DNA from: a virus
Virus record (IMG/VR): IMGVR_UViG_3300048930_001424
Location: 26,257-90,256 of that record
Reading direction: 5' to 3' (one strand)
DNA: 64,000 bases
Shown here piece after piece: positions 31,424 through 51,188 of the stretch (position 1 is its first letter; every line of letters begins with the position of its first letter). A model generated the notes under the pieces. It had not been told where the DNA came from. It did no database searches and saw nothing but the letters and a program-made list of their open reading frames with translations. The position numbers and the translations under genes are program-made.

Positions 31424-31456
31424 GCGCGACAAACCCGGCTGGTTAGCAGAGGGGTA
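31424..31456 (+). promoter_or_regulatory. Element-specific promoter motif, copy 1
   Basis: GCGCGACAA-N13-GCAGAGGGGTA upstream of the recombinase operon. Confidence 0.7.
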
Positions 31457-31482
31457 TGGTCGAGGGCTGCGTCCCTCGCCAT

Positions 31483-31752
31483 ATGCCACGACACAAATCG
31501 CAGAACAACCCGACGCTGGCGGGCACGCCGTGCGTTCCGGCCCGCGCCATCGAACTCCTCGCGGCGGGGACGGCCCGGCTGATCGACGCGAGCGCCCACG
31601 ATTCGAGCGTCATCATTGAACACGCCGGTTCCCTTCGGGCGGGACTTGAACTCGCGGATCATGCCGCCCTCAGTGTGCCTACGGGTGAACGCCACCGTCC
31701 CGAACCGGAGAACCCGGGACGATGCTGCCCGAAGGAGCCTGAAGGACGATGA
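31483..31752 (+). CDS. Small hypothetical protein, first gene of the recombinase operon
   Basis: ATGA overlap with the DUF2924 gene; start uncertain. Confidence 0.5.
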   Translation: MPRHKSQNNPTLAGTPCVPARAIELLAAGTARLIDASAHDSSVIIEHAGSLRAGLELADHAALSVPTGERHRPEPENPGRCCPKEPEGR

Positions 31753-32261
31753 GGACCACCGCAACCATCCAGCAACAGATCGACGAGCTGCGAGACATGC
31801 CCGTGTCGCGGCTCCGCGAGCGCTACGCGGAAGTATTCGGCGAGCCGACAGCCTCCGGAAATCGCCAGTGGCTTTTCCGGCGGGTGGCCTGGCGAATCCA
31901 GTCCTTGGCCGAAGGGGACCTCTCCGAGCGGGCGCGGCGTCGGGCCGCGGAGTTGGCCCGGGACGTCGACGTCCGGGTCCGGCCGCCGGGGGAACGGGAA
32001 TCCGACAAAGTCCGCTCCGGCGCGCGGCTCGTGACAATCACTGGACGGCTCGCGTCGGCGGGAACCGACCGCCTGCCCGCGCCCGGCACCGTCCTGCGGC
32101 GCACGTTCAAGGGCGCTGAGCACGAGGTGACGGTTCTCCCCTACGGCTTCGAGTACGAGGGGAAGGCGTACCGATCCCTGTCGGCGGTGGCGACGGCGAT
32201 CACAGGGTCGCACTGGAACGGGTTCCTGTTCTTCGGGCTGACCAAGAAGGGAACAACATGA
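31749..32261 (+). CDS. DUF2924 protein
   Basis: RVAWRIQ…GDLS, PGTVLRR…SLSAVATAITGSHWNGFLFFGL. Confidence 0.88.
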   Translation: MRTTATIQQQIDELRDMPVSRLRERYAEVFGEPTASGNRQWLFRRVAWRIQSLAEGDLSERARRRAAELARDVDVRVRPPGERESDKVRSGARLVTITGRLASAGTDRLPAPGTVLRRTFKGAEHEVTVLPYGFEYEGKAYRSLSAVATAITGSHWNGFLFFGLTKKGTT

Positions 32262-33850
32262 GCTCCGCCGTCACCAAGCGTCCCGCCGCTTCGCGCCGCG
32301 CCGCCGCGGACGCCGCGCTGGGAAGCTCCTCGCCGTCTAAGTCGGGCCCGCGGACCATCCGCTGCGCCATCTACACGCGCAAGAGCACCGAGGAGGGCCT
32401 CAACCAGGAGTTCAACAGCCTGGACGCCCAGCGCGAGAGCGCCATCGCGTACATCGCCAGCCAGAAGAACGAGGGGTGGCTGTGCATCTCCGAGAAGTAC
32501 GACGACGGTGGATTCACCGGCGGGAACATCGAGCGTCCTGCGCTCAAGCGGCTGATGGCCGACATCGAAGCGGGGAAGGTCGACTGCGTGGTGGTCTACA
32601 AGGTAGACCGGCTCAGCCGATCGCTGATGGATTTCGCGCGGCTGATGGCGCTCTTCGACCGCAAGGGCGTGTCGTTCGTCTCCGTCACGCAGCAGTTCAA
32701 CACGACCCACTCGATGGGCCGCCTGACGCTGAACATCCTGCTGTCGTTCGCACAGTTCGAGCGGGAGATCATCTCCGAGCGAACGCGGGACAAGATCGCC
32801 TCCGCGCGGCGCAAGGGCAAGTACCAGCACGGCAAGCCAATCTTGGGGTACGACTTCGTGCCCGCGCCGGCTCCATTCACGGGGCGGCGCCTGGTCGTCA
32901 ACCAGGTCGAGGCGGGTCGCGTCCGGCGCATCTTCGAGTTGTACCTCGAGGTCGAGAGCATCCTGCGAGTTGCCGACGAGTGCAACACCCGCGGTTGGAC
33001 CACGAAGTCGTGGACGACCACCGCTGGGCGCACGGTCGGCAACCGGGAGTTCGACAAAACCATCATCTCGCGGCTCCTTCGCAACCCGCTCTACCTCGGG
33101 AAGGTGCCGCACAACGGTGCGGTGTACGACGGCGAGCACGAAGCGATCATCGACGAGGATCTGTTCCGCCGCGTCCAAGCCCAACTCAAACTCGCCGGCG
33201 AGCGCGGCGGGGCCGGCGTGAAGAACTCGACAGGGTCGCTCCTGGGCGGGTTGGTCCGGTGCAAGGGGTGCGAGTGCGCGATGTCCCCGAGCAGTGCATC
33301 GAAGAAGAAGTCCGACGGGTCACGCACCCGATACCGCTACTACGTCTGCTGCAACGCGGTGAAGCGCGGGCGGCAGCACTGCGCCGCCCCGTCCTTGCCC
33401 GGGCCGGCGCTCGAAGCGTTCGTCCTTGACCAGGTGAAGGCCATTCTGGCCGACTCCCCGCAGATGACGGCTGTCGTTGGCCGTGCGATCGATCTCCTCC
33501 GCGAGGCCGCCAGCGCTCGGATCGCGGAGCAGACGCGGCTCCGTGCCGTGCTCGAACGGCTCTCCGGCGAGGAGCCAACGGCCGCCACGCGCCGCGAGAT
33601 CGAGCGTGTGCGGCGAACGCTCGCGGCGGTTTCCGCGCAGGTGGCGGCGGACGCCGACCGCCTCATCGACGAGGACGAGGTGGCCGGAGCGGTGGAGGCT
33701 TTCGACGGGGTCTGGAACGCGATGACGCAGGCCGAACGCGCCGAGTTCCTGCACGTCGTGATCGCGTCAGTTGAGTACGACGGCCAGACGCAGGACGTCT
33801 CGATCACCTTCAACCCCGAACTCAATCCAGCGGAGACACCCAGCGAATGA
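32258..33850 (+). CDS. Large serine recombinase (integrase)
   Basis: AIYTRKST catalytic Ser, YKVDRLSRS, NPLYLG, Zn ribbon CKGC…YYVC…C. Confidence 0.93.
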   Translation: MSSAVTKRPAASRRAAADAALGSSSPSKSGPRTIRCAIYTRKSTEEGLNQEFNSLDAQRESAIAYIASQKNEGWLCISEKYDDGGFTGGNIERPALKRLMADIEAGKVDCVVVYKVDRLSRSLMDFARLMALFDRKGVSFVSVTQQFNTTHSMGRLTLNILLSFAQFEREIISERTRDKIASARRKGKYQHGKPILGYDFVPAPAPFTGRRLVVNQVEAGRVRRIFELYLEVESILRVADECNTRGWTTKSWTTTAGRTVGNREFDKTIISRLLRNPLYLGKVPHNGAVYDGEHEAIIDEDLFRRVQAQLKLAGERGGAGVKNSTGSLLGGLVRCKGCECAMSPSSASKKKSDGSRTRYRYYVCCNAVKRGRQHCAAPSLPGPALEAFVLDQVKAILADSPQMTAVVGRAIDLLREAASARIAEQTRLRAVLERLSGEEPTAATRREIERVRRTLAAVSAQVAADADRLIDEDEVAGAVEAFDGVWNAMTQAERAEFLHVVIASVEYDGQTQDVSITFNPELNPAETPSE

Positions 33851-34317
33851 CCTCACCCTCCAAACAGGCAGGCCGCGCTTCGGGTTTCGTCCCGATCACG
33901 ACGACGGCGAGATTCGTCGTGCCGGGACGGGAACGAGCGGTGGCGCCTTACGGGGTTGCGCAGAAGCCCGTATCACCCGGTCGGGTGCCGCGGGTCGCGC
34001 GGTTGATGGCGCTGGCGATCCGGTTCGATGCCCTGGTTCGGGAGGGAGCGGTGAGCACGCAGGCCGAGCTAGCTGCGGTCGGCCATGTCACGCGGGCGCG
34101 TGTGACCCAGATCATGAACCTCCTCCACCTCGCGCCAGACCTGCAGGAGGCCATCCTTTTTATGCCTCCTGTCGCGCGCGGCCGAGACCCGGTGACCGAG
34201 CATGAACTTCGGCCCATCGCGGCTGAGGTCGATTGGGGCCGTCAGCGTCACTTGTGGCGACGTGCTTATCAGACGTTTTGCGGCGAAACACCTCATCTTG
34301 CGGCCAATCCCGGGTGA
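33847..34317 (+). CDS. HTH-like hypothetical protein, recombinase-associated
   Basis: QAELAAVGHVTRARVTQIMNLLHLAPDLQEAIL; ATGA overlap. Confidence 0.75.
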   Translation: MTSPSKQAGRASGFVPITTTARFVVPGRERAVAPYGVAQKPVSPGRVPRVARLMALAIRFDALVREGAVSTQAELAAVGHVTRARVTQIMNLLHLAPDLQEAILFMPPVARGRDPVTEHELRPIAAEVDWGRQRHLWRRAYQTFCGETPHLAANPG

Positions 34318-34408
34318 AGATGTGCCTCTCGGCGGTCGATGCCAATAACAGCGACCAGACGCCAGCGCGGGCGTGTTTCCCGGAACGGCGGTCGTCGAGG
34401 CCGACCGC

Positions 34409-35194
34409 ATGGGACACACCCGATTTGGCAACTTACCGAGATCGCGGAAGTGGAAAGAGGTGATCGGCCTCATCGCCGCCGGCGCCGGCGCTGATCAGAT
34501 CGCCAACGCGATTATCCGCGCGGCCGAGTCCGGCCTCATGGCCGCGGCGCATCATACAGGTCTCGTCGAGGCATTCTGGTCGCTCACGCAGCTCACACAG
34601 GCGGCGCGAGAGAAGGACTTTGCCGCCGGCCTTCGAGCCCGTGGCTTTGATGTCCCTGACAACCCCAGCTTGCCGGCAATCATGAGCGCCGTGTCGGCCG
34701 CGATCGACCGCAGCATGCCCAACAACAAGGGCCGTACCGATCTGGGCGAGATGGCACACGCCGCAGCGATCGAGACCACGAACCGGATCGTAACCGAGCG
34801 GGTCTCGTCGTCCCTCTTTGGGGTCTCCGCTCAAGACGTTCAGCGCGCCTTCCACGACCTCGGCACGGTCAAGAACTTCGGCGACCTCGGCAAGCGGTTC
34901 TTCGGCCAGTTGACCAACAAGGTTCTCCAGTCATACGCGAGCCGCGAGTGCGCGAATCACGTCGGTCAGGGGCAGCGGTTTGCCAACCTCGCCGCGAAGG
35001 CCGCCTTCGATGAGGCGATGAACGTGCACTGCAGGCAGGCCGCCGTGATCGTCCAGAAGTTTGCCGGGGAGTGGCAGTCGAAACAAAACTGGACGAACAA
35101 GGACATCGGCGGGATCACGCGCAAGCACGCCGAGGGGTTTGCTCACCAGGCGATGAAAAAGATGGTGGCCGAACTAAAGGAGGGGAACAAGTGA
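34409..35194 (+). CDS. Helical protein with MG- N-terminus, QatB-like partner of QueC
   Basis: GAGG RBS, ATG 34409 giving MGHTRFGNLPRSRKW; GTGA-coupled to the QueC gene. Confidence 0.65.
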   Translation: MGHTRFGNLPRSRKWKEVIGLIAAGAGADQIANAIIRAAESGLMAAAHHTGLVEAFWSLTQLTQAAREKDFAAGLRARGFDVPDNPSLPAIMSAVSAAIDRSMPNNKGRTDLGEMAHAAAIETTNRIVTERVSSSLFGVSAQDVQRAFHDLGTVKNFGDLGKRFFGQLTNKVLQSYASRECANHVGQGQRFANLAAKAAFDEAMNVHCRQAAVIVQKFAGEWQSKQNWTNKDIGGITRKHAEGFAHQAMKKMVAELKEGNK

Positions 35195-37218
35195 ACCCTC
35201 CCGAGATGCTGTTCGCGTGCAATGAGGCCGCTTCGTCCCATCCTGGTACGGTTGCCGGCGTGTCCAAGCTCCGCACCGCGGGGCCGGGAAAAAACGTCAC
35301 CGTCGAGATCAACGACATCGGCCGGCAGCTCAACCAAAACATCCCCGCGCCGCTCATCGACCTGGTCGAGATCGCCGCGCTCGTGTTTGTCGCCGATCAG
35401 ATGCAGCGTCGCGGCGAGGACGATGTCGAATCGATGGGTGCGTCCTGGCGTCGCCGCATGCGGTTCGAGATTCCCGTCCGCGTTCCGAAGCTCTGGAGCT
35501 CCGCCGAGGTCGGCGATGCGCTTCAGGCACTTCTGAGTTTCCTCTCGGAGGATGAGTACGAGTTCACGTTCACCCAGTACAAGCATCCTCCCACGCTCGA
35601 CGCGTACTTGAACTTCGGCTCGCTCATCTCGGCCGACCCTGCCGAGTCGGTGGTCCTGTTCTCGGGCGGCTTGGATTCTCTGGGCGGCACCCTCGAAGAA
35701 GTGGTTCAGGACAAACGATCCACGCTGCTGGTTACGCATGCGTCGGCCAGCACGAAGCGAGAGCGCCACAAGACCCTGCGGGGCATGATCGCTAGCGCCG
35801 CGCCGGGCCCCAAGCCCCAATTCATCAGGATTCGCGCCGACAAGAAGCACCGATCTGAGCGGGAGTACACGCAGCGGGCTCGGTCCTTTCTCTACGCGTC
35901 GTTCGCCGTGGCAGTGGCTCGCATGGCCGGGCTGGACGCCATCCGGTTCTACGAGAATGGCGTCGTGAGTCTGAATCTGCCCCTCTCACCCCAGGTCGTC
36001 GGCTCGCGCGCGACCCGCACGACCCATCCCAGGGTGCTCGCTTGCATGCAGACGTTCTTTTCGCTCATCACGGGGACATCGTTCAGCGTGGAGAACGGGT
36101 TCCTCTGGAAGACCAAGAGCGAAGTGGTCAGCGACATCATTAAGCTCGGCCACGGCGCGATGATTGACTACTCCACGAGCTGCACGCACACCCGCAAGTA
36201 CCGCACCGATCAGCCCCACTGTGGCGAGTGTTCCCAATGCATCGATCGACGGTTCGCGGTCTTGTCCAGTGGCGGTGAACAGTTCGAGCCCGCGGACCGG
36301 TACCGCCACAAGCTGCTGACCGAAGCGCGCGGCGAGGGCGAGTCACGGATCATGTTGGCGTCGTACCTGGAGACGGCTCAGCAGGTCGCGGAGATGGACA
36401 TCACCGCATTCTACAACCGGTATGGAGAAGCAGCCCGCGCGTTCCCCCACATCAAACTACCTGTGGATGAAGCGGCGAAGCGGATCTTCGAGCTCTACCA
36501 GCGCCACGGGAAGCAGGTCGCGTCGGCTATCGACGCAGCCGGCAAGGCGTACATGTCCGAGATCCGGAAACGCACCCTGCCCGAGACGTGCACGTTGCGC
36601 CTCGTGCATGATCCGAACCCCAACACGACGATTGCGAGCGCCCCGTCGGCGTCGGGCATAGCCGAACCGCCGCCGCCGTCGCACCAGCTCGTTCAGGAGG
36701 GCCAGGGCTGGCTGCTGCGGTTCGACGGAATCGACAAGCGATTCGAGCTCAGCGTGGGCATGGTCTATCTGCAGGCCATGCTGTATCGGCCAAACAAGCG
36801 GTTCACGGTGGCCGAGCTCTACTCCATCGCCCGTCCGCACATGAAGGACATCCCGAGCGCCCGGGCAGAGGCGCAGTTGGATGCGAAGGGAGCGCGTTTA
36901 GTCTGGGTGAGGATCACCGAGGTCAACGACGCGATCGCCGCCGCCATCAAGGCCGGCGATACCACCGCCCAGAAGGTCGCAGAGAACGAGAAGGAGAAAC
37001 TGCTCGCGTACCTGCGTGAGCACAACTTCGCCGGACGCATGAAGGTGGAAAGCGCCGACCACAAGCGTCTCAGGGACCGTGTCCGCAATCGGGTGAACGA
37101 CGCGATCGGAATCATCAAGAAGTATCACGCCACCGCCGGCGACCACATCGACGGAGCCATATCTCGTGGCTCTGTCATGGCTTACGCGCCCGTCGACCTG
37201 CCGCCGTGGGAGTTCTGA
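35191..37218 (+). CDS. QueC/QatC-like PP-loop protein fused to a putative DNA-binding C-terminal domain
   Basis: LFSGGLDS, QRARSFLY, YENG, TRTTHP, SCTH…HCGECSQCIDRR; Pro/Ala linker, then ~185-aa domain. Confidence 0.82.
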   Translation: MNPPEMLFACNEAASSHPGTVAGVSKLRTAGPGKNVTVEINDIGRQLNQNIPAPLIDLVEIAALVFVADQMQRRGEDDVESMGASWRRRMRFEIPVRVPKLWSSAEVGDALQALLSFLSEDEYEFTFTQYKHPPTLDAYLNFGSLISADPAESVVLFSGGLDSLGGTLEEVVQDKRSTLLVTHASASTKRERHKTLRGMIASAAPGPKPQFIRIRADKKHRSEREYTQRARSFLYASFAVAVARMAGLDAIRFYENGVVSLNLPLSPQVVGSRATRTTHPRVLACMQTFFSLITGTSFSVENGFLWKTKSEVVSDIIKLGHGAMIDYSTSCTHTRKYRTDQPHCGECSQCIDRRFAVLSSGGEQFEPADRYRHKLLTEARGEGESRIMLASYLETAQQVAEMDITAFYNRYGEAARAFPHIKLPVDEAAKRIFELYQRHGKQVASAIDAAGKAYMSEIRKRTLPETCTLRLVHDPNPNTTIASAPSASGIAEPPPPSHQLVQEGQGWLLRFDGIDKRFELSVGMVYLQAMLYRPNKRFTVAELYSIARPHMKDIPSARAEAQLDAKGARLVWVRITEVNDAIAAAIKAGDTTAQKVAENEKEKLLAYLREHNFAGRMKVESADHKRLRDRVRNRVNDAIGIIKKYHATAGDHIDGAISRGSVMAYAPVDLPPWEF

Positions 37219-37220
37219 CT

Positions 37221-37263
37221 CCGCTACGCCGAATGTAGCGGCCCGCTACGCCGCGTGTAGCCC
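37221..37263. promoter_or_regulatory. Tandem palindromic operator-like sites
   Basis: CCGCTAC-GCCGAAT-GTAGCGG and CCGCTAC-GCCGCGT-GTAGCCC, 22-bp period. Confidence 0.6.
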
Positions 37264-37374: not shown

Positions 37375-37941
37375 ATGCCTTCGATCGCAGCAGACCGGGC
37401 GCTGACGTGCGCCGATCGTAGCGGCTTTGCCGCTTTCCCTTCCCTCACCGTCCGGCAGATGGAGTTCCGCACCGAGCGTCTCGGACGGCTGTACTCCCTC
37501 TTCCCCGACCAGGTCGCCGATCTCCGGCAGGAGTTGGCGGCCGAGATCGTGCGCGCGCTGCGGCGGTTCGATCCGACGATCGCCTCGCGGACGACGTTCA
37601 TGAAGGGCGTCATGAACCTCTGGTACCGGCAGAAGTGCAAGCAGCTGCGCCGCGAAGCGGCGGAACGCGACCGGCTCGTTCCTCTGCCGCCGCTGGGGAC
37701 CGAGGGCAGGGACTTCGCAGACCGCCGCCTCGGTGGCGTGGCCGAAGTGGACGCACGCCTCGATCTCGCCGACCGCATCGCGGATCTGCCGCAGGACCTG
37801 TTCGCGCTCGCCCGCGACCTGCTCGCGGGCAAGTCGGTCCCGGAGATCGCCGCCGAACGCGGCGTTCACCGGGGGACAGTGAACCGCATGGTCCTGCAAC
37901 TGCGCGCCCGCCTGGCCGACCTCGATCCGGCCGCCAACTAG
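37375..37941 (+). CDS. ECF-like sigma-70 family factor
   Basis: DLRQEL…LRRFDP…TF region 2; C-terminal HTH SVPEIAAERGVHRGTV; GAGGAGG RBS. Confidence 0.78.
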   Translation: MPSIAADRALTCADRSGFAAFPSLTVRQMEFRTERLGRLYSLFPDQVADLRQELAAEIVRALRRFDPTIASRTTFMKGVMNLWYRQKCKQLRREAAERDRLVPLPPLGTEGRDFADRRLGGVAEVDARLDLADRIADLPQDLFALARDLLAGKSVPEIAAERGVHRGTVNRMVLQLRARLADLDPAAN

Positions 37942-37942
37942 C

Positions 37943-37975: not shown

Positions 37976-38124
37976 TTGGCGTGCCCCCTGCCCGTACCCC
38001 GCGCACGGAACCGCCCGGCCCTGCCGACGAGAGCCTGCCGCTCGTCCGGTTGGGGCAGGGCGATTTCACCCGCGACCTGCGGGCCGAGGACCTCGATCCC
38101 CATCACCACAGGAACGGAGCCACC

Positions 38125-38865
38125 ATGCCCCTACTCGATTCGGTGATCACGACCACGACACCCTCGCCGCCCAAGATTCTCGTCTACGGCACTCCGGGCG
38201 TCGGGAAGACCACGTTCGCCGCCAGCGCCGGCGCGCTGCTCCTGGACTGCGAGAACGGCGCAGGCGCCGTGCCCGGGCTCACGCGGACCCCGTTCCTCAA
38301 GAGCTGGCCCGAAGCGCAGGCCTGGCTCGCCGAGATCGAGGCCCAGCCCCCCGAGGGGCTCGGAGCCGTGGCGATCGACACGCTCGACTGGCTTGTGCAG
38401 CGCATCGTCGAGTACGTCGTGATGGACCTCGACAAGAAGAGCAAGGGCGAGGTTACCAACACGCTCTCCTCGGCCCACGGCGGATACTTCAAGGCCCGCG
38501 AGATCGTCAACAACATCGTCAGCCGCGACCTGCTCCCGCTGCTCAACGCAATCGCCGACCGCGGCATCGCCGTGATCCTGCTGGCGCACGCGGCCAACAC
38601 CAAGATCACCACGCCCGAGGGGTACGACGTGCGGCTCGCCGCGCCGGATATCCCGCAGTGGATCGCCCCGACGTTCGTCGAGTGGGCCGACGCCGTGCTC
38701 TACGCCTCGCGCGAAACCACGGGCGAGCGCGTGCTCACGACCGAGGGAACGAGCAACGTCACCGCCAAGAACCGCTACGGCCTGCCGTCCAAGGTGGGCC
38801 TGTCCTGGAAGGACCTGTCGGACGCGATCCAGCATGGGCTGGAGCGCCAGTCGGCCGGTCGCTGA
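38125..38865 (+). CDS. AAA_24 / Sak4-like ATPase (phage recombinase)
   Basis: KILVYGTPGVGKTTFA, AIDTLD, AKNRYGLP; alternative in-frame GTG at 37981. Confidence 0.85.
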   Translation: MPLLDSVITTTTPSPPKILVYGTPGVGKTTFAASAGALLLDCENGAGAVPGLTRTPFLKSWPEAQAWLAEIEAQPPEGLGAVAIDTLDWLVQRIVEYVVMDLDKKSKGEVTNTLSSAHGGYFKAREIVNNIVSRDLLPLLNAIADRGIAVILLAHAANTKITTPEGYDVRLAAPDIPQWIAPTFVEWADAVLYASRETTGERVLTTEGTSNVTAKNRYGLPSKVGLSWKDLSDAIQHGLERQSAGR

Positions 38866-38916
38866 TCCACATCCCCATCACCGCACCACACACTCGTTCA
38901 TGAAGGAGTCCGCTCA

Positions 38917-39390
38917 ATGGCCAGCCTGAACAACTTCGACGCCAATCAGGTCGATCCATCCGTTGCGCTCGATCCGCTCCCCGCGGGCAAGTACATCGCG
39001 GTCGTCTCGGAGTCCGAGCTCAGGCCGACCAAGGCCGGCGGGGGCAAGTACCTGCAGCTCACGTTCCAGATCATCGAGGGCGAGCACAAGGGACGCCTGG
39101 TGTGGGCCCGCCTGAACCTCGAGAACAAGAGCGAGATGACCGTGAAGATCGCCCGCGGTGAACTTTCGGCGATCTGCCGCGCCGTCGGGGTGATGCAGCC
39201 GCGCGACTCGGTCGAACTCCACAACGTGCCGTTGGAGATCAACGTTGGGCTTAAGAAGCGCGACGACAACGGCGAGTTCACCAACGTTATCAAGGGGTAC
39301 GCCAAGAAGGGCGGCAACAACGGGACGACGACGGCTCCGCGTCCCGCCGCGAGCACCGGCCCGGGGAGCACACCGCCCTGGAAACGCTGA
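38917..39390 (+). CDS. DUF669 protein (phage SSB-like)
   Basis: FDANQVDP…PLPAGKY…PPWKR; follows the Sak4-like gene. Confidence 0.85.
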   Translation: MASLNNFDANQVDPSVALDPLPAGKYIAVVSESELRPTKAGGGKYLQLTFQIIEGEHKGRLVWARLNLENKSEMTVKIARGELSAICRAVGVMQPRDSVELHNVPLEINVGLKKRDDNGEFTNVIKGYAKKGGNNGTTTAPRPAASTGPGSTPPWKR

Positions 39391-39785
39391 CTCCATCCGG
39401 GCGTCTCCTCGAACTCCCTTACCCGCCAAGTGTGAACCACATCTGGCGGCGCGTGGGCGAGAGGACCGTCATCAGCCGCGAGGGCCGGCGCTACCGCAGG
39501 GACGTGTGCGCCGCCCTCGCGGCGATGTCGGGGAGGCGAACGGCGCGGATGGAAGGGCGCTTGGCGGTGAGTGTCACCGTCTGCCCGCCCGACCATCGCC
39601 GGCGCGACCTGGACAACGTGCAGAAGGCGCTGCTGGACGCGCTCGCCAAGGGGGGCGTGTACCGCGACGACTCGCAGATCGATCGGCTGGAAGTTGAACG
39701 CGGCCCGGTGACTCCGGGCGGAAAGGTGCTGGTGGAGATCCGTGAGATCGCGCGTACGCACAGCCCCAGCCGCGTTCAGGGATGA
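39387..39785 (+). CDS. rusA: RusA-family Holliday junction resolvase
   Basis: LPYPPSVNHIWR, RRDLDNVQKALLDAL, DDSQI; probable CTG start. Confidence 0.88.
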   Translation: MTPSGRLLELPYPPSVNHIWRRVGERTVISREGRRYRRDVCAALAAMSGRRTARMEGRLAVSVTVCPPDHRRRDLDNVQKALLDALAKGGVYRDDSQIDRLEVERGPVTPGGKVLVEIREIARTHSPSRVQG

Positions 39786-40023
39786 CGGTCCCCGCGCGGT
39801 GGACGGCACGCGCCGGGGCGACCCGATCCCGGGCAGCCGGTTCTTCCGGTCGTTCTGCGCGTGCTGCGGTGTACCGATGCGGATGGAGGCGGATCGGGTG
39901 AACGAGGACGTGCTGTGCAACGAGTGCGATCCGCCGCACATCGGCGTGGGTGGGCCGCACGGCGGCCTGAACGGGCTCGACGCCGACCTCGATGCGTGGA
40001 GGCCTTCGTCCCTGGCTGGCTGA
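39742..40023 (+). CDS. Small Cys-rich hypothetical protein
   Basis: CACC…CNEC; fills the gap between rusA and the helicase gene. Confidence 0.45.
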   Translation: MRSRVRTAPAAFRDDGPRAVDGTRRGDPIPGSRFFRSFCACCGVPMRMEADRVNEDVLCNECDPPHIGVGGPHGGLNGLDADLDAWRPSSLAG

Positions 40024-41732: not shown

Positions 41733-44029
41733 GCCCCGCCGCCGAACTCCAACTCGGGCCCGCGGCCTCGGCGTACCTCAGCGCTGGGCTGTCCGTCCTT
41801 CCTGCACTGCGCCGCGGGGACGAGAAGCGAGTCGCGCTCCCAAAGTGGTCAGCGTTTCAGCGGCGCCTCCCAACCGACGCGGAGTTGTCGACCTGGATGA
41901 ACCTCGAGCCCGACGCCATCTGCGTGGTCTGCGGGGCGATTTCCGGCAACCTTGAGATGATCGACTTCGACTGCGCCGGCGAGGCCTTCGACGCGTGGCG
42001 CACGATGGTCGAAGAGATTCAGCCCGGCCTGGTTGAGCGTCTTCTCGTCGAGACCACGCCTTCGGGCGGTCGCCATGTGGTGTACCGCTGCGAGGCGCCG
42101 GTCTGCGGCAACACGAAACTCGCCCAGCGGCGAGTGGATGCCGACGGCGAGGCACCGGTCATGATCGGGGGCAAGTCGCTCACGCCCCGGCGCGGCGCGG
42201 ACGGGAAGTGGTGCGTCGTCGTCACGCTCATCGAGACGCGGGGCGAGGGCGGGATGTTTCTGTGCGCCCCCTCGCCGGGCTACGAGGCCGTTGCGGGGAG
42301 CCTGGCGAACCCGCCGCTCGTCTCGGCCGAGGAGCGCGAGGTGCTCCTCGGCTGCGCCTGGCGGATGAACGACGCCGAGCCCGCCGTGACGGGAGCGCCG
42401 CAGCAGTCTTCGGGTACGTGTGTCCGGCCCGGGGACGACTACAACGCCCGGGGGGATGCGCGGGAGATCCTGCGCCGCCACGGCTGGGAACTCGTCAAGG
42501 GCGGCGAGAACGAGCACTGGCGGCGGCCGGGCAAGCAGAGTGGCACGAGCGCGACGCTCAAGGGCGGCGTCTTCTACGTCTTCTCGAGCAACGCCCCGCC
42601 GTTCGAGCCTAACCAGGCCTACGCCCCCTTCGCGGTCTACGCGCTGCTCGAGCACGGCGGGGACTTCGCCGCCGCGGCCTCGGCGCTCCGGGCCGAGGGG
42701 TTCGGGACCGAGCCGCCCGAGTCCGCCGACGTGGATCTCTCCGCGTTCACCGCGGAGCACCACGACGGCGACGCGGTCGAGCATGTCGAGCGGCCGGACG
42801 ATCCGGGACAGTTCCCGCCCCATCTTCTGTCGGTGCCCGGTCTGATCGGGGAGATCGTGGCGCACAACGTCGCGTACGCGCCACGCCCGCAGCCGCAGTT
42901 GGCGCTCGCCGGCGCGATCGCTTTGCAGGCCGTGCTCGCCGGCCGGAAAGTCTGCGACGAGCGCGGCAACCGTACCAACGTCTATTGCGTGGGCCTGGCC
43001 AAGAGCGGCGCGGGGAAGGACCACGCCCGCAAGCTCACGCGAGACATCCTCTTCGCCGCCGGCGCTGATGATCTTGAGGGCAACGAGGACCTGGCCAGCG
43101 ACGCCGGCCTCTTCACCGCCGTCGAAGCCCAGCCGGCGATCCTGTTCCAGCTCGACGAGTTCGGGCGCTTCCTGCGGACCATCGGCGATCCCAAGAAGGC
43201 CCCGCACCTGTTCAACGTGCTGACGGCGTTCATGAAGTTCTACAGCTCCGCCGACACTTTCGTGCGCGGCAAGGCCTACGCCGATGCCAAGCGCAACAAA
43301 TCCGTGGACCAGCCGTGCGTCGTGCTCTACGGCACCACCGTGCCGGACAGCTTCTGGGAGTCGCTCACCTCAGAGAGCCTCAGCGACGGGTTCATCGGCC
43401 GCCTCCTGGTCTTCGAGTGCCCCGAACGACCCAAGCGCAAGCGCCGGGCCCGCGTGCCCCCGCCCAAAGCCATCGTGGATCGCGTGCGCTGGTGGGCGGA
43501 GTTCTCGCCGGGCGGCAACCTCCGCAAGGAGCACCCCGAGCCGCTGGTGGTGACGGCGACGCCCGAGGCCGCCGCGCGCTTCGACGCGCTGGCCGACCAC
43601 GCCGATGCCGAGATGGAGTCCAAGGGCGAAGGCATCGCCGCGGTCTGGTCGCGCGCCGAGGAAAAGGCCTGCCGCTTGGCCCTGATCTACGCCTGCTCGG
43701 CCAACCCGGAGAATCCCGTCATCGACGAACAAGCCGCGTCGTGGGCGTGCGACCTATCAAGCTACGTCACGCGTCGCCTGCTCTTTGAGGCGCACGTCCG
43801 CATCGCCGACGGCCAGTTCGACGCCCGCCAGAAGCGCGTGCTCCGGATCATCGACGAGCACGGCGGCACGCAGGGCATATGCCACACCCAGCTGCTCTGG
43901 AAGACGCGCTGGCTGAGCGTCCGCGAGCGGCAGGAGGTCATCGACAACCTGATTGCCACGGGGCAGATCAATGAAGTTCGAGTTGCAACGAAGGGAAGGA
44001 GCGCAACCCGCTATGTTTCCAGAGCCTGA
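41729..44029 (+). CDS. Prim-Pol primase-polymerase with DUF3987 helicase-like domain
   Basis: GLSVLP…KW..FQRRLPT, IDFD, ETTPSGGRH, AKSGAGKD, QLDEFG. Confidence 0.85.
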   Translation: MSPAAELQLGPAASAYLSAGLSVLPALRRGDEKRVALPKWSAFQRRLPTDAELSTWMNLEPDAICVVCGAISGNLEMIDFDCAGEAFDAWRTMVEEIQPGLVERLLVETTPSGGRHVVYRCEAPVCGNTKLAQRRVDADGEAPVMIGGKSLTPRRGADGKWCVVVTLIETRGEGGMFLCAPSPGYEAVAGSLANPPLVSAEEREVLLGCAWRMNDAEPAVTGAPQQSSGTCVRPGDDYNARGDAREILRRHGWELVKGGENEHWRRPGKQSGTSATLKGGVFYVFSSNAPPFEPNQAYAPFAVYALLEHGGDFAAAASALRAEGFGTEPPESADVDLSAFTAEHHDGDAVEHVERPDDPGQFPPHLLSVPGLIGEIVAHNVAYAPRPQPQLALAGAIALQAVLAGRKVCDERGNRTNVYCVGLAKSGAGKDHARKLTRDILFAAGADDLEGNEDLASDAGLFTAVEAQPAILFQLDEFGRFLRTIGDPKKAPHLFNVLTAFMKFYSSADTFVRGKAYADAKRNKSVDQPCVVLYGTTVPDSFWESLTSESLSDGFIGRLLVFECPERPKRKRRARVPPPKAIVDRVRWWAEFSPGGNLRKEHPEPLVVTATPEAAARFDALADHADAEMESKGEGIAAVWSRAEEKACRLALIYACSANPENPVIDEQAASWACDLSSYVTRRLLFEAHVRIADGQFDARQKRVLRIIDEHGGTQGICHTQLLWKTRWLSVRERQEVIDNLIATGQINEVRVATKGRSATRYVSRA

Positions 44030-44610
44030 ACGCACCACGACGCCTTCGCTGCTTGTTTGCGGGTCTCCTTCGTCTGTATACACGCGCGGGGAGAGAGAGA
44101 AGAGGTATGCAAACAAGCAATCATCTTTCTCTTCACTCAATTCCCCGCCTATTCCTCGTGCGAAACCCCGTGGCGTGCCCCGACACATTCCGGCCCGCCC
44201 AACTTCATTGATGGTTGGGATGGCAATCCCGGGTGGGAGCCTTACAGCCGGAAGCCTTACGGCGAGGGGGTCGGGGGTCGGTAGGTACTCCCGGGCCGAG
44301 CCTGCGAATCGATGCCCGCGGGAACAGCCGCGCTTGGCGACAGAGTTTGTTTCGCGCGTCCGGGCGCGGGGCGGTTGGGTGGCGGGGGTAGCCCGCCTCT
44401 CCGCCAGGTACGCGACGTGGGCCAACGCGGGCGAACCCGTGGCCAACGGGCGCGCCAGGTAACGGGGCAGGAATCGGGGCGCTTCGCCGCCCCCGGACGG
44501 GCCCGTCAGCCCGAGCGATCCAACGAGCCAGCGATCCCCGGACCTACCGCGCCGCGGTGGGCCACCACGACGCCCCACGCGCCGCGCCGGCGCGCACGAC
44601 GGAGATCGCT

Positions 44611-45978
44611 GTGAACATCGAGATGCTTCCTATCGACGCGGTCAAGGAATACGACCGCAATCCCCGCACCATCAACGACGCCGCGGTCGAGGCGGTTGCC
44701 AAGTCGATCGAGACCTTCGGCTTCAAGATCCCGATCCTCATCGACGGTGACGGCGTCATCATCGCGGGGCACACGCGGCTGCGCGCCGCGAGGAAGCTCG
44801 GGCTGAAGGAAGTGCCGACGATTCGCGCATCGGACCTGACGCCCGACCAGGTCAAGGCGCTCCGCATCGCCGACAACAAGGTCGCGTCGCTCACGGCGTG
44901 GGACATGGAACTCCTGCCCATCGAGCTCGCCGACCTCAAGGGCGTGGATTTCGACCTGGCGGTGCTCGGCTTCAGCGCCGAGGACCTCGCGGCGATCATG
45001 GCTCCCGCCGGCAACGAGGGTCTCACCGATCCCGACGATGTTCCTGGCGCTCCCGACGCTGCGACGACCGTGCCCGGCGACATCTGGGTGCTCGGCAACC
45101 ACCGCCTCTTGTGCGGCGATTCGTCGAAGCCCGAGGACCTGGATCGGTTGCTTGGCGGCCAGCCGATCCACCTCGTGAACACGGACCCGCCGTACAACGT
45201 GAAGGTCGAGCCTCGCTCAAACAACGCGATCGTCGCCGGCCTGAGCTCGTTCGCCCTGCCCGGCAAGGCCGACCAGCACGATCAGCAGAGCGCCGACCTC
45301 AACCGCTACCCCGAGAAGAGCCGCGCAACGCACAAGAAGCTCCGGGCCAAGGACCGGCCGCTCGCCAACGACTTCGTGTCCGACGACGAGTTCGACCGGC
45401 TGCTCGCGGCGTGGTTCGGGAACATCACCCGCGTGCTGATCCCCGGCGGCACGTTCTACATCTGGGGCGGATACGCCAACTGCGGGAACTACCCGCCCGT
45501 GCTCAAACGCTGCGAGCTCTACTTCGCGCAGGCGATCATCTGGATCAAGGAACACCCGGTCCTGACCCGCAAGGACTTCATGGGCAACCACGAGTGGTGC
45601 TTCTACGGCTGGAAGGAAGGGGCGGCCCACCGCTTCTTCGGCCCGGCGAACGTGCCGGATACGTGGTCGATCAAGAAGGTGAACCCGCAGAGCATGGTCC
45701 ACCTCACCGAGAAGCCCGTGGAACTCGCGCGGCGGGCGATCGAGTTCTCATCCCGGCCCGGGGAGAACGTGCTCGACCTTTTCGGGGGCTCGGGCTCCAC
45801 GCTCATCGGCGCAGAGATGACCGGGCGGCGGGCGTTCCTCATGGAGCTCGACGCGCTCTACTGCGATGTCATCGTGCAGCGGTGGGAGAAGTTTACGGGC
45901 CGCAAGGCGGAACGGCTCTCCGCCGCGCCGGCAAACTCTGTGGCCGAAGAGAAAGCCCCGGCGAAGGCCGAGGCGTGA
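44611..45978 (+). CDS. ParB-N domain fused to an N4/N6 DNA methyltransferase
   Basis: IIAGHTRL…ADNK; TDPPYN; HLTEKPV; DLFGGSGST. Confidence 0.9.
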   Translation: MNIEMLPIDAVKEYDRNPRTINDAAVEAVAKSIETFGFKIPILIDGDGVIIAGHTRLRAARKLGLKEVPTIRASDLTPDQVKALRIADNKVASLTAWDMELLPIELADLKGVDFDLAVLGFSAEDLAAIMAPAGNEGLTDPDDVPGAPDAATTVPGDIWVLGNHRLLCGDSSKPEDLDRLLGGQPIHLVNTDPPYNVKVEPRSNNAIVAGLSSFALPGKADQHDQQSADLNRYPEKSRATHKKLRAKDRPLANDFVSDDEFDRLLAAWFGNITRVLIPGGTFYIWGGYANCGNYPPVLKRCELYFAQAIIWIKEHPVLTRKDFMGNHEWCFYGWKEGAAHRFFGPANVPDTWSIKKVNPQSMVHLTEKPVELARRAIEFSSRPGENVLDLFGGSGSTLIGAEMTGRRAFLMELDALYCDVIVQRWEKFTGRKAERLSAAPANSVAEEKAPAKAEA

Positions 45979-45997
45979 GGAGGGGGCACCGATGCGT

Positions 45998-46477: not shown

Positions 46478-46480
46478 GGG

Positions 46481-46939
46481 TCAGGCCCCCTTCCCGGCGA
46501 CGAAGACGCCCTTGTCGTGCTTCTTGAAGCGGGCCTTGTCGCCCTTGGCGGCGATCTCGCGGATGATGGCGGCGTAGAGCGTGGCCTCGGGCGTCTTGCC
46601 GCCGGGGCTCTTCCAGAGTCCCTTCGCCTCCATCTTGGCGATCATCTCCTTGGCCCGCATGGGAACCTCGGAATCGGCGAGTACCTGCGCCGCGGCGTCG
46701 AGGGCGCTGACGCGCTTCGGGGGGGTGGGCTTCTTCTCCTTCGCGGGCTTTGGGGCCTTGGGCGTCTTGGGTGCCTTCCCGGCCTTGGCCTTCGCGGGCT
46801 CGGCGGGCTTGCCGTCCAGGCGGTCCTTGATCTCGGCGAGCGCCGCCTTGCGGAGGCGCTCCGTCTTCGCTGCGCCGTCGGCGCGGACAGCGCTCTTGGA
46901 CATGCGGGTCTTCGGGGCCTTTTTCGTCTTCGTACTCAT
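46481..46939 (-). CDS. Lys/Ala-rich protein with HARE-HTH (HB1/ASXL) domain
   Basis: [10 protein letters not shown]…[23 protein letters not shown]…RF. Confidence 0.8.
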
Positions 46940-47026
46940 GCGATTCTCCAAACCAGGGGTGCGGAATCCCGCCGCACGCTGCGGCGGGGAATCGGGGCCG
47001 GCGCGGTTCCCCGCGCCGCCTCGCGG

Positions 47027-47311: not shown

Positions 47312-47356
47312 GGGCGTGCTCCTTCGAGGGGATGGGGGTGCGTGCGTGGCGGGCGG

Positions 47357-47623: not shown

Positions 47624-47701
47624 ACTGGTACCTCTCGTCGCTTGGGGTGCTTGCGGTGCGTGGTGACTCCGGTAAACAACGAAGCCCGCATTTCGCGGGC
47701 T

Positions 47702-47995
47702 TCAGGTCGTCGGGCGGGTTGTGCGGTTGGGCGGGGGCGTCTTGGGCCGCCCCACCGCGTCGAGGTAGTCCACCAAATCGCTGGTAAACCAAGTATCGCC
47801 GTCGACCGCGTCGTGCTCGTCGGGGCCGCGGCGGCCGTCGGGGTCGATCTCGAAGAGGCGGAAGCCGCCGGCGCTGGCGGCGTCGACCGACCAGGTGCGG
47901 CCGTCGGGCGTGCGGACCTCGATGCTGGCAACCGCGAACCCGCGGCGTCCCAGGGCGGTGACGATCTCGATCGTGTTCTTCGTTGTCGTGTTCAT
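47702..47995 (-). CDS. Hypothetical protein
   Basis: GGAG RBS, ATG at 47995. Confidence 0.6.
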   Translation of the reverse strand: MNTTTKNTIEIVTALGRRGFAVASIEVRTPDGRTWSVDAASAGGFRLFEIDPDGRRGPDEHDAVDGDTWFTSDLVDYLDAVGRPKTPPPNRTTRPTT

Positions 47996-48099
47996 CTTCG
48001 TGGTCTCCGTCGCGGGGTTCCGCCCCGCGTTGTGACACATGAAGCCATGACATCCGCGAACAGGCAAGGCGAATCCGCGCGGCATCGCCGTCATTCCGC

Positions 48100-48133
48100 G
48101 ACATGTGGGCAACTCGGCGGGACATGTGGGCAA
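48100..48133. repeat. Direct repeat GACATGTGGGCAA x2 (21-bp period)
   Basis: Exact copies at 48100-48112 and 48121-48133 in a divergent intergenic region. Confidence 0.85.
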
Positions 48134-48153
48134 GTTCGGGCGGGAGGTCCGCG

Positions 48154-48405
48154 ATGACTCCCGAACACGCGCCTAGTCCCGCCGCATCGCCAGGGATGTC
48201 CCGGCTGAACCCCGCGGCGCTCCCCTTGGCGGACGCCGCCCGCGTCCTCACGCGCCTGGGCGGCAAGGCCGTCAGCGAGGCGATGCTCCGCGACGACATC
48301 AGCGCGGGCGCGCCAGTGAACGCCGACGGCACGATCAACCTCGTGCACTACGCCGCGTGGCTCGTGAAGGAGATGGCTGGTTCCGGAGGTGGCGGTGGCG
48401 ATTGA
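48154..48405 (+). CDS. Small HTH protein, putative terminase small subunit
   Basis: GGAGG RBS; directly upstream of the terminase; GAPVNADGTINLVHYAAWL. Confidence 0.6.
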   Translation: MTPEHAPSPAASPGMSRLNPAALPLADAARVLTRLGGKAVSEAMLRDDISAGAPVNADGTINLVHYAAWLVKEMAGSGGGGGD

Positions 48406-50686
48406 CCCGCGCAAACTCAAGCCCGGCGAACTCGCGCGCCTGCTCAACAGCACACCGCTGGGCGAGGTGGTGAGCGAGCGGCAGCTCCATCGGCACCGCA
48501 CGCGCGCCGGGTTCCGCGTTGCTGCGGACGGGGATGGTGGCAAGGTTGACCTGTTCCGGTACGTCGCCTGGCTGGTCACGACACGGCACGAGGCCCTCGC
48601 CGAAGCAGCCCGCCAGCCCGAGGGGCTCACCGGCTACGAGGCGATGAAGGAGCGGGCGCGGCAGCGCAACGCCGTGCTCTCGCTCTCGGGACGCGACATC
48701 GGCGAGCTCCCGCCGGTGGCCGATCCGGGGCGACGCGAGCGGGCGGCGCGAGACTTCCGGTACTTCTGCGAGACGTACTTCCTGCAGACGTTCCATCTCA
48801 AGTGGTCGGACGACCATCTCAAGGTCATCGCCAAGATCGAGCAAGCCGTCCTCGAGGGCGGGCTGTTTGGGATGGCCATGCCCCGTGGCAGCGGCAAGAC
48901 CTCGCTGTGCGAGGTCGCCTGCCTGTGGGCCATGCTCTACGGGCATCGGGACTTCGTGGCGCTGATCGGCTCGGATGAGGAGCACGCCGCGGGGATGCTC
49001 GAATCGATCAAGGCGGAGCTGGAGAACAGCGAGCTTCTCGCCGGCGACTTCCCCGAGGTCTGCCATCCGATCCGCTGCCTGGAGGGCATCCACCAGCGGG
49101 CCTCGGGACAGCTCTACCAGGGCAAGCAGACGCACATCGGCTGGACCGCCCGGGAGATCGTGTTGCCGACGATCTCCGGCTCGGCTGCCGCCGGCGCCAT
49201 CATCCGTGTCGCCGGGATCACCGGCCGCATCCGCGGCATGAAGCACAAGCGAGCCGACGGCACCTCGGCGCGGCCGTCGCTTGTGCTGATCGACGACCCG
49301 CAGACCGACGAGAGCGCCCGGTCGCCCTCGCAGTGCGCTAACCGCGAGCGCATCCTCGCCGGCGCGATCCTCGGCCTCGCTGGCCCGGGGAAGAAGATTG
49401 CGGGCCTCATGACGCTGACGGTTGTCCGCCCCGACGATCTGGCCGACCGCATCCTCGATCGGGACAAGCACCCGCAATGGCAGGGCGAGCGGACGAAGAT
49501 GATGTACGCATTCCCGGTGCGGGAGGCGCTCTGGCAGCGGTACGCGGAGCTGCGCGCCGAGGGTCTGCGGAACGATCGGGGGATCAAGACCGCCACGGAG
49601 TTCTACCGCCAGCACCGGACCGCGATGGACGAGGGGGCGGCGATCGCCTGGCCGCAACGGTTCAACCACGATGAACTATCCGCGGTCCAGCACGCCATGA
49701 ACCTGAAGCTCCAGGACGAGGCGGCGTTCTTCGCGGAGTACCAGAACGAGCCGCTGCCCGAGGTCCAGGCCGCCGACGACCTGCTGAGCGCGGATCAAAT
49801 CGCGGCGAAGGTGAACGGGCAGGCCCGCGCTGAGGTGCCCATTGGCTGCACCCGGCTGACGATGTTCGTGGATGTGCAGGGCAAGGCGCTCTTCTATCTC
49901 GTGGCCGCCTGGGAAGACGATTTCACGGGGTACGTGGTCGACTACGGCACCGAGCCGGACCAGAAGGCGCCGGGAGGGTACTTCACGCTCCGCGACATGC
50001 GCCGGACCCTGGCGACCGCGGCCCCTCGCGCCGGAGTCGAAGGAGCGATCTATGCCGGTCTGGAGCGTCTGGTCGCTTCGCACCTGGCGCGCGAATGGCG
50101 TCGCGACGACGGGGCGATGGTGCGGATCGATCGCTGCTTGATCGACGCGAACTGGGGATCGTCCACCGACGTGGTGTACCAGTTCTGCCGCCAGAGCCCG
50201 CACGCGGGCGTGCTCATGCCAAGCCACGGCCGGTACGTCGGTGCGTCGAGCATTCCCTTCAGCGACTACAAGCGCAAGCGGGGCGACCGGGTCGGCCTGA
50301 ACTGGCGTATCCCGGTCGTCACCGGCAAGCGCGCCGTGCGGCACGTCGTCTTCGACACGAACTACTGGAAGTCGTTTGCGCACGCGCGGCTCGCGGTGCC
50401 CATGGGCGATCCCGGGTGCCTGTCGCTGTTCGGAAGCAAGCCCGAGCCGCACCGCCTGCTGGCCGAGCACCTAACCAGCGAGTACCGCGTGAAGACCGAG
50501 GGCCGCGGGCGCACCGTGGACGAGTGGAAGCTCCGTGTCGACGGGCTCGACAACCACTGGCTCGACTGCCTGGTCGGCGCGGCGGTCGCGGCCTCCATGC
50601 AAGGCGCCGTGCTGTTCGGCACGGATCACAAGGTGTCGGCTCGCCCCCGGTTGCGGTTGTCCCAGCTGCGAGGAGAACGCCGGTGA
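48389..50686 (+). CDS. Terminase large subunit (GpA-like)
   Basis: MPRGSGKT, LIDDPQ, FVDVQ, LIDANWG, NHWLDC. Confidence 0.9.
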   Translation: MAVAIDPRKLKPGELARLLNSTPLGEVVSERQLHRHRTRAGFRVAADGDGGKVDLFRYVAWLVTTRHEALAEAARQPEGLTGYEAMKERARQRNAVLSLSGRDIGELPPVADPGRRERAARDFRYFCETYFLQTFHLKWSDDHLKVIAKIEQAVLEGGLFGMAMPRGSGKTSLCEVACLWAMLYGHRDFVALIGSDEEHAAGMLESIKAELENSELLAGDFPEVCHPIRCLEGIHQRASGQLYQGKQTHIGWTAREIVLPTISGSAAAGAIIRVAGITGRIRGMKHKRADGTSARPSLVLIDDPQTDESARSPSQCANRERILAGAILGLAGPGKKIAGLMTLTVVRPDDLADRILDRDKHPQWQGERTKMMYAFPVREALWQRYAELRAEGLRNDRGIKTATEFYRQHRTAMDEGAAIAWPQRFNHDELSAVQHAMNLKLQDEAAFFAEYQNEPLPEVQAADDLLSADQIAAKVNGQARAEVPIGCTRLTMFVDVQGKALFYLVAAWEDDFTGYVVDYGTEPDQKAPGGYFTLRDMRRTLATAAPRAGVEGAIYAGLERLVASHLAREWRRDDGAMVRIDRCLIDANWGSSTDVVYQFCRQSPHAGVLMPSHGRYVGASSIPFSDYKRKRGDRVGLNWRIPVVTGKRAVRHVVFDTNYWKSFAHARLAVPMGDPGCLSLFGSKPEPHRLLAEHLTSEYRVKTEGRGRTVDEWKLRVDGLDNHWLDCLVGAAVAASMQGAVLFGTDHKVSARPRLRLSQLRGERR

Positions 50687-50880
50687 ACCCCCGCGTGCCA
50701 GCCCGCCCTGCCAAGCCGCTCCCCCAGCCGCGCGGGCTCACCTGCCCCCGGTGCGGATGCCGCCACTTCGACGTGCTCTACACACGCGCGGCTGGGGGGG
50801 CCAGCGGTGCGATCCGCCGCCGGCGTTCGTGCCGGCATTGCGGTCGGCGGATCACGACCGTCGAGCGCCCCATCGAGTGA
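50683..50880 (+). CDS. Zn-ribbon protein (NrdR-N / Ogr-like)
   Basis: CPRCG…IRRRRSCRHCGRRITTVE; GTGA overlap. Confidence 0.75.
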   Translation: MNPRVPARPAKPLPQPRGLTCPRCGCRHFDVLYTRAAGGASGAIRRRRSCRHCGRRITTVERPIE

Positions 50881-50923
50881 CCGGGTCTACCCGTAGACCG
50901 TTTCAGCCACATTGCTATCGCAC

Positions 50924-50956
50924 GCGCGACAACACACCGGCTGGAGCAGAGGGGTA
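50924..50956 (+). promoter_or_regulatory. Element-specific promoter motif, copy 3
   Basis: GCGCGACAA-N13-GCAGAGGGGTA, 5 nt before the GTG of the head operon. Confidence 0.72.
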
Positions 50957-51171: not shown

Positions 51172-51188
51172 GTTTCACCGTACCCCCG

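Follow-up and report, generated by a model that had tools for sequence, protein, structure and literature searches.

The 64,000-nucleotide stretch of DNA analysed here, called the window below, covers bases 26257-90256 of a 90,256-base provirus record in IMG/VR (IMGVR_UViG_3300048930_001424). It contains three copies of a bipartite motif, one of them adjoining a gene for a sigma-like protein. The element that carries them is a prophage, its layout having been derived from gene calls guided by the GC content of third codon positions (GC3) together with Pfam, NCBIfam, and PHROGs searches, and its host is a bacterium of the Phycisphaerae (Planctomycetota). Homologues of the sigma-like protein lie in Phycisphaerae or other Planctomycetota assemblies in 12 of 15 genome loci, and some are named sigma-70 family factors by NCBI or JGI. 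Because those 12 loci are planctomycetal, prophage contigs found in bins named Dehalococcoidia, Acidobacteriota, and Leptolyngbya (loci L027, L032, and L035) are likely mis-binned.

Three copies of a bipartite motif and a sigma-like gene

The motif consists of a 9-nt box and an 11-nt box separated by 13 nt, GCGCGACAA-N13-GCAGAGGGGTA. Exact matches number three in the window, all on the plus strand, where 0.01 would be expected by chance (100 shuffles), and no fourth match appears there even with three mismatches allowed. The entire record holds three forward and no reverse matches, and a control with the reversed pattern finds none. Taken singly, the 11-nt box has four matches at up to one mismatch against 0.46 expected, and the 9-nt box four exact matches against 1.7 expected. 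Site 1 (P1, 31424-31456) stands at the left edge of conserved prophage DNA, before a string of genes that runs from a recombinase to the sigma gene. Site 2 (P2, 37943-37975) begins 2 nt past the stop codon of the sigma gene and precedes the replication module. Site 3 (P3, 50924-50956) lies between the gene for the large terminase (TerL) and the gpW-like and portal genes of the head.

All three operons read on the plus strand. The first opens with orf89, a DUF2924 protein (31749-32261; Pfam, 8.5e-46), a large serine recombinase (32258-33850; Pfam Resolvase, 1.9e-38, plus Recombinase and Zn_ribbon_recom), and orf156 (33847-34317; phrog_14161 'recombinase', 1.4e-18), whose open reading frames (31483-34317) overlap by 4 nt. 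The sigma gene (37375-37941) encodes 188 residues, designated P0001, and has its own GAGGAGG ribosome site. The replication and recombination module that follows (37981-45978) comprises, by Pfam, an AAA_24 protein starting at GTG 37981, DUF669, RusA, a helicase, a primase-polymerase/DUF3987 protein, and a ParB-methylase. Past the ParB-methylase come five minus-strand genes, the small and large terminase genes, site 3, and then the first genes of the head operon (50962-52766), namely a gpW-like gene of 69 codons starting at GTG 50962 and a lambda-family portal (51189-52766; Pfam Phage_portal_2, 1.4e-58).

An earlier note on this DNA had described three identical copies of the boxes with a fixed 13-nt gap, ahead of recombinase, replication, and head operons, and had copies 2 and 3 running into in-frame starts with no separate ribosome-binding site. 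The gene calls and Pfam matches agree in placing one copy before each operon. Site 2 continues through TTGGC-GTG into the reading frame at 37981, and site 3 through CTGGC-GTG into that at 50962. No earlier in-frame start separates either GTG, which lies 5 nt past box 2, from the preceding in-frame stop, and GC3 over the first 50 codons is of the coding type (0.84 from GTG 37981 and 0.90 from GTG 50962). There is no ribosome site apart from the motif, and box 2 itself contains GAGGGG at Shine-Dalgarno distance. Across relatives, all 27 instances of sites 2 and 3 have a start codon at position +6, counting from box 2 (26 GTG and one ATG), with the five intervening bases varying; because of this fixed placement, leaderless messenger RNAs from P2 and P3 are plausible.

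At sites 2 and 3, 9 nt separate the end of GAGG in box 2 from the GTG, a distance invariant in all 27 instances, and some contigs from RNA libraries (four runs with relatives: X15, X13, X16, and X17; DNA carry-over possible) cross both sites. Both observations would suit a box 2 that is mainly a translation signal, GAGGGG serving as the Shine-Dalgarno sequence of transcripts arriving from upstream. At site 1, however, box 2 is 26-27 nt from the ATG with a hairpin between them; in the sigma-less elements described below no start follows the motif at +6; distant lineages possess the motif plus separate AGGAGG-type sites 20-40 nt further on; and box 1, 13 nt upstream, would be left unexplained. 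We therefore consider a mainly translational role extremely improbable.

The hairpin directly after site 1 (31457-31481, plus strand; 25 nt) is followed by ATG 31483 without a Shine-Dalgarno sequence. Its stem is GGCGAGGG/CCCTCGCC, its loop and length vary (27-30 nt up to the ATG), and it is found in 23 of 24 distinct versions of the site, with a value of -13.7 kcal/mol for the window copy. Its possible roles are to stabilise the 5' end, to act in translation, or to serve as an operator. An N-terminal extension of orf89 to ATG 31456 was rejected, the hairpin region varying by 1-3 nt in length among relatives. A short hairpin (GGTCTA-CCCG-TAGACC, then GTTTC; 50884-50899, plus strand) lies 25 nt before site 3 as a weak terminator-like element. 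Similar hairpins occur in the site-3 flanks of several relatives; the terminator scan did not call it.

P0001 matches TIGR02937 (sigma70-ECF, where ECF denotes extracytoplasmic function) with an E-value of 3.1e-7 over residues 42-181, corresponding to profile positions 21-162 of 165, and phrog_1740 ('RNA polymerase sigma factor') at 1.7e-5. A profile built from 30 family members finds, in PDB, the ECF factors SigE (4.5e-8) and CnrH (3.1e-6) over both domains (positions 25-180), and Pfam models Sigma70_r2 and Sigma70_r4_2 each recognize 16 of the 30 members. These matches support the identification of 37375-37941 as the gene of a divergent ECF-type sigma factor. The family comprises 217 representative clusters at E<=1e-30 and 4030 at E<=1e-10; tblastn with the sigma against 50,697 GenBank phage records gave no match. 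No anti-sigma family was recognized among the neighbouring genes by Pfam, NCBIfam, or PHROGs. P1 and the sigma gene share a strand and are 5.9 kb apart, P1 being upstream; the intervening genes all point the same way, overlap by 4 nt in three places, and leave gaps no longer than 156 nt. As a predicted cognate promoter, P1 would stand before the sigma's own operon, the arrangement expected of autoregulation. Between P1 and the sigma gene, no plus-strand terminator-like site was called by a consensus scan whose totals are near chance (10 terminator-like sites against 10.6 expected and one sigma-70-like site against 1.3).

The motif in relatives, host genomes, and sigma-less elements

Eleven viral contigs (16 stretches) and 44 metagenome stretches contain the exact motif. 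The 48 distinct instances fall into three syntenic classes, with no fourth among them: 21 at site 1, where the hairpin follows; 15 at site 2, directly past the sigma stop codon; and 12 at site 3, before the gpW-like gene. Loci were also collected through the sigma protein, independently of the motif, and gave the same pattern. At up to two mismatches, every related locus that includes the 3' end of the sigma gene (15 of 15) has site 2. Site 1 occurs at its syntenic place in 10 of 12 related loci with at least 6.5 kb upstream of that gene, and site 3 at the junction of TerL and gpW in five of six close relatives. An alignment of the TerL-gpW gap from six relatives retains only the two boxes and the start codon as conserved. 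Eight distinct spacers occur among 11 distinct (GTG-type) instances of site 3, and nine among 21 instances of site 1. With spacers that differ and flanks that are unrelated, selection is judged to act on the boxes only. The DNA that precedes site 1 bears no relation from one relative to the next until box 1 is reached; the conserved part of the prophage therefore opens with the putative promoter.

This abrupt boundary, together with a spacer less variable at site 1 than at site 3, might instead indicate that the motif is a recombination, replication, or packaging site, site 1 being for example the P' arm of the phage attachment site attP. Against this, the three copies are co-oriented and each directly precedes an operon. 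A search of the window and two complete relatives for an inverted partner of box 1 plus spacer at the right end found nothing better than 7-9 mismatches in 24 nt, and the tandem arrays of the sigma-less elements fit promoters, not attachment or packaging sites. When the DNA ahead of site 1 from four viral contigs was compared by tblastx, no clear right end of the phage emerged. We regard a site of this kind as very unlikely; an attP overlapping P1 would, in any case, not contradict a promoter.

In host genomes, the motif is confined almost entirely to such prophages (genomes are designated G and loci L). At up to three mismatches, the complete 3.6-Mb chromosome of G001 has five matches, four of them inside its two prophages and the fifth, with three mismatches, consistent with chance. 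The 4.1-Mb assembly of G002 has eight. The reversed-pattern control finds none in either, and G090 and G250, genomes without this prophage lineage, have no match to the motif. With a somewhat loosened pattern and at most one mismatch, the 401 genomes of the class yield 11 matches, spread over seven of them, against one for the control. The genome-wide abundance that the earlier note had held to be incompatible with its proposal was thus not seen in the genomes scanned.

Diverged lineages pair diverged sigma factors with motifs of their own. The prophage G001_B has a sigma 73% identical to P0001 and carries CAGAGAGGTA at all three sites. Sigma homologues at 25-38% identity were detected in 24 of the 401 class genomes, and a related motif, GCGCGACAR-N13-GCAGAxxTAG, overlaps or follows the sigma stop codon in 10 of those 24 loci. 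In G062, GCGCGACAR-N13-GCAGATATAG occurs exactly three times, before the DUF2924-recombinase genes, before AAA_24, and between TerL and gpW, and the layout in G338 is similar. G268 and G220 contain three copies of GGACAG-N13-GGCGTATGTAGCC; phages in G268, G220, and G002 have GGACAG-N13-GGCGTA(T/G)GTAGCC three times, one copy directly past the sigma gene. A further type, ending in ACGGGTTAGGTGCTCTATGG, lies past another sigma gene in G268 and also occupies the position of site 1 on an IMG/VR contig. Leaders of 20-40 nt with AGGAGG-type sites of their own come after the motif in the distant lineages, and the motif is therefore to be viewed as a transcription signal rather than a ribosome site. 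The sigma gene abuts site 2 in every lineage examined.

The closest comparison is available within the same record, where a sibling prophage has CCGCCAC-N11-TTCGCGTAGATG at each of the three syntenic positions (2085, 8922, and 17967 in the record). The two prophages are 87% identical in TerL, 82% in the ParB-methylase, and 66% in the portal, yet the sibling sigma (173 residues) cannot be recognized from P0001 by BLASTP (E-value 2.5), its membership being apparent from the family profile (1.8e-23). The motif of each prophage is absent from the other. A hybrid, GCGCGAC-N13-CGCGTAG (record 2005-2031, 24 kb ahead of the window), precedes site 1 of the sibling; its box 1 is like that of the window type and its box 2 like that of the sibling.

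Some matches from the 401-genome scan have no sigma gene nearby (G268, G262, contig C35 of G002, and contig C75 of G220). A search with the sigma-family profile gave no match within the 20-35 kb around the sites in G268 and G262, and none at E<=1e-12 on C35 and C75. These matches belong to an element of about 6 kb that comprises the motif region, an AlpA-like helix-turn-helix protein, a Toprim/DUF3987 primase, an open reading frame of 255-275 codons, and a tyrosine integrase. The genes past the motif region were read in three of the four genomes, the G262 contig ending 6 kb beyond the motif. The region itself is a tandem array of the motifs of different lineages, types E, D, A, B, and C, spaced about 76 nt apart. 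Type E is GGCGTATGTAGCC, type D is GGGTTAGRTGCTnTATGG, type A is the motif of the window (GCGCRACAR-N13-nCAGAGRGGTA), type B is GCASATATAG, and type C is the motif of the sibling prophage; at least one more block, TTGCATAAAG, is conserved. The array in G268 lies at 14870-15290 of L162 (G268:C1:3284870-3285290), and others are in L169, L170, and L164. Beyond the array, type C has one 2-mismatch match (G268) and type B one copy about 430 nt upstream (C35), and reversed controls for these two types find nothing in the array genomes. G268 and G220 also host type-E phages, and the array of G220 carries the GAGAGGTA variant, as does its co-resident phage. Since five unrelated motifs of 20-30 nt, each independently derived, cannot line up by chance, the arrangement argues that the motifs are functionally equivalent promoters acting in trans.

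The sigma-less elements are satellite-like in their apparent logic. Measured against what defines P4-like elements, they have only the tyrosine integrase, the AlpA-like protein, and the Toprim/DUF3987 primase, and they were not classed as P4-like. Their orf275 has no Pfam hit, and no flanking direct repeats of clear attachment-site type were found around the element. In G268, genes for PP2C, TerB, BrxC/D-like, and DEAD-helicase proteins lie directly upstream of the array.

Sigma-dependent promoters as a reading of the motif

We regard it as likely that the three motifs are promoters which host sigma factors leave unused and which would be read by RNA polymerase carrying the prophage's own ECF-type sigma (37375-37941). 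The earlier note had proposed such a private promoter, and five independent comparative results support it. In relatives, the motif recurs at each of the three syntenic positions, its boxes unchanged and its spacers free to vary; within host genomes it is confined to such prophages, apart from the one 3-mismatch match in G001; each diverged lineage combines a sigma that has itself diverged with a motif of its own, again at those three positions; the sigma gene adjoins site 2 in every lineage examined; and sigma-less elements carry arrays of the motifs of several lineages. That the sigma is the reader, where transcripts would start, and the order of events we infer from sequence.

ECF promoters usually have the consensus AAC/CGT, from which the present 9- and 11-nt boxes differ, in the geometry AAC-N16-CGT. 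Aligned on the AC of box 1, the five motif types share GC(A/G)(G/T)A 14-16 nt downstream, an arrangement that is ECF-like by this measure. Box 1, with its core GCGAC, would be the -35 element, and the start of box 2 (GCAGA), about 15 nt past that core, the -10 element; GGGGTA would be the segment leading up to the transcription start, which the alignment places near its end. Alternatively, GGGGTA would itself be the -10 element and the G of the GTG would be +1. Readings as sigma-54 promoters or as sigma-70 promoters of the TTGACA/TATAAT type were rejected by eye for spacings that misfit (19 nt to TATAGA in the G062 type; no GG-N10-GC).

Two tandem 17-bp palindromes (GCTAC-N7-GTAGC; GCTACGCCGAATGTAGC and GCTACGCCGCGTGTAGC) occupy 37223-37261 in the 156-nt gap before the sigma gene, two exact copies against 0.62 expected at up to one mismatch. 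Both are present at the same offset in six of the 15 listed loci (the window and five relatives), one is present in two, and neither is present in seven; those seven have a different gap before the sigma gene. We infer that they are a candidate operator for a first burst of sigma. That burst would come from the gap, and the sigma would then fire P1, P2, and P3. P1 would express DUF2924, the serine recombinase, the cargo genes, and the sigma itself, in positive feedback; P2 the replication and recombination genes; and P3 the gpW-like, portal, head, and tail genes. Whichever -10 assignment holds, transcripts from P2 and P3 would begin 0-6 nt from the GTG and be leaderless or nearly so, and that from P1 would begin with the hairpin.

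The asymmetric, bipartite site with its fixed 13-nt gap has the geometry of a promoter rather than that of a palindromic operator. The sigma would be its reader, and the prophage also encodes a HARE-HTH protein (46481-46951) and several small unassigned proteins. The motif could be the site of another phage DNA-binding protein, or a host-sigma promoter that needs a phage activator, with the sigma-like gene not the reader. Locus L080, which shares the motif of G001_B with a sigma only 36% identical to P0001, would fit such an arrangement. Several facts argue the other way. Sigma gene and site 2 sit side by side in every lineage examined, and between the siblings the sigma has diverged past BLASTP recognition while TerL has remained 87% identical. 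The host-sigma variant would, moreover, predict copies across the host genome as members of its regulon, and none are seen except the one chance-like match. We judge another reader unlikely, and a sigma-read promoter remains the preferred explanation.

Several observations nevertheless weigh against a sigma-read promoter. P0001 scores 30.2 bits against TIGR02937, below the curated cut-off of 42.9, and 17 bits against Pfam Sigma70_r4_2, below the cut-off of 25.7. The boxes, at 9 and 11 nt, are longer than the usual ECF elements, and the assignment of the -10 element is ambiguous. Because the L080 sigma (36% by tblastn) goes with the G001_B motif, motif and sigma identity do not simply track each other. 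The relative G001_A has kept its sigma and site 2 and has neither site 1 nor site 3, but an ATG with its own leader instead. In this prophage (L052+L053, G001:C1:2588001-2628000), which is probably decaying, the DUF2924 gene is truncated. Finally, the motif is absent before the terminase genes and before the five minus-strand genes. The suggestion in the earlier note that one sigma switches on excision, replication, and morphogenesis together is accordingly to be qualified: copies stand before the recombinase, replication, and head genes, and the terminase and minus-strand genes have none.

For the lineages as a whole, we lean slightly toward a picture in which the temperate phages of Phycisphaerae that make up this large family are run by mutually orthogonal sigma-promoter pairs, and a sigma-less element of about 6 kb parasitises them through its array of promoters from at least five lineages. 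Each lineage would have its own sigma and three promoters of its own, so that tandem sibling prophages would not cross-fire, and the sigma-less element would be switched on by whichever helper phage is induced, as a many-channel receiver.

Related systems and further features of the locus

The sigma resembles ECF (group IV) members of the sigma-70 family in that it appears to be a small protein of two domains (regions 2 and 4), its family profile matching SigE and CnrH over both. A further likeness is the bipartite, fixed-spacing promoter with one copy before the operon that contains the sigma gene. According to one account, ECFs 'usually autoregulate their own expression', some ECF groups are also without an anti-sigma factor, and the ECF classification did not capture phage ECFs or divergent ECFs (PMC7826278). 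The present sigma differs in being prophage-encoded, in scoring under curated cut-offs, and in having no recognized anti-sigma partner. A search of full-text literature found no paper on the present system; members of the family might appear in the supplementary tables of surveys of ECF or phage sigma factors.

Most of the sigma factors known to be encoded by phages come from lytic phages that infect Firmicutes or enterobacteria. Those of SPO1 (gp28 and gp33/34) and T4 (gp55) redirect host polymerase to phage promoters; a review by Nechaev and Severinov is among the references of PMC7826278. In contrast, the phage here is temperate, a single sigma would serve three operons rather than a cascade, and there are lineage-specific pairs within one family. 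A nearer counterpart is Xpf, the 'positive control factor' of the defective prophage PBSX of Bacillus subtilis, described as having sigma regions 2 and 4 of group IV type (PMC10141391). Like the present sigma, it is a prophage-borne, sigma-type protein tied to the switching on of prophage genes after induction. Xpf drives the PBSX late operon, whereas the three promoters here would also cover the recombinase and replication modules; the host phylum differs, and the likeness is one by description.

The AlpA-primase-integrase elements without a sigma recall the relation of P4 to P2: they carry the phages' promoter motifs, as P4 late genes answer to Ogr (P2 Ogr/P4 delta). The P4 core set includes integrase, alpA, and the alpha primase (PMC8628076). 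They differ in that the factor would be a sigma and that promoters of at least five lineages stand in a row; no counterparts of psu, sid, or delta were recognized in them. The immunity modules of lambdoid phages offer another parallel: mosaic phages that are otherwise close kin have sharply different versions of one regulator and of its cognate sites, which permits two of them to co-reside. The diverging pair here is instead a positive factor, sigma and promoter, rather than repressor and operator.

A temperate phage family of a barely studied phylum thus appears to run its recombinase, replication, and head genes through one private sigma. The sigma-promoter pairs, at least five in number and orthogonal-looking, are potential parts for Planctomycetota genetics and synthetic circuits, and the tandem siblings form a natural test of non-cross-talk. 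The promoter arrays, if true as read, would give a satellite-like element a novel means of listening to many helpers at once, and they offer an independent and purely genomic route to recognizing functional promoters.

Between orf156 and the sigma gene lies a variable cargo slot (34373-37218, plus strand) with orf273 and a QatC/QueC-like protein, the latter matching NCBIfam QatC at 4.4e-57, under the family cut-off. By tblastn, this pair has no match between orf156 and sigma in G001_A, G001_B, or G002_C10. No Rfam family matched within 31000-52000. The region ahead of the terminase genes is of another kind than the three sites: directly before ATG 48154 of the putative small terminase it has a 13-nt direct repeat, GACATGTGGGCAA, in two exact copies 21 nt apart (48100-48133).

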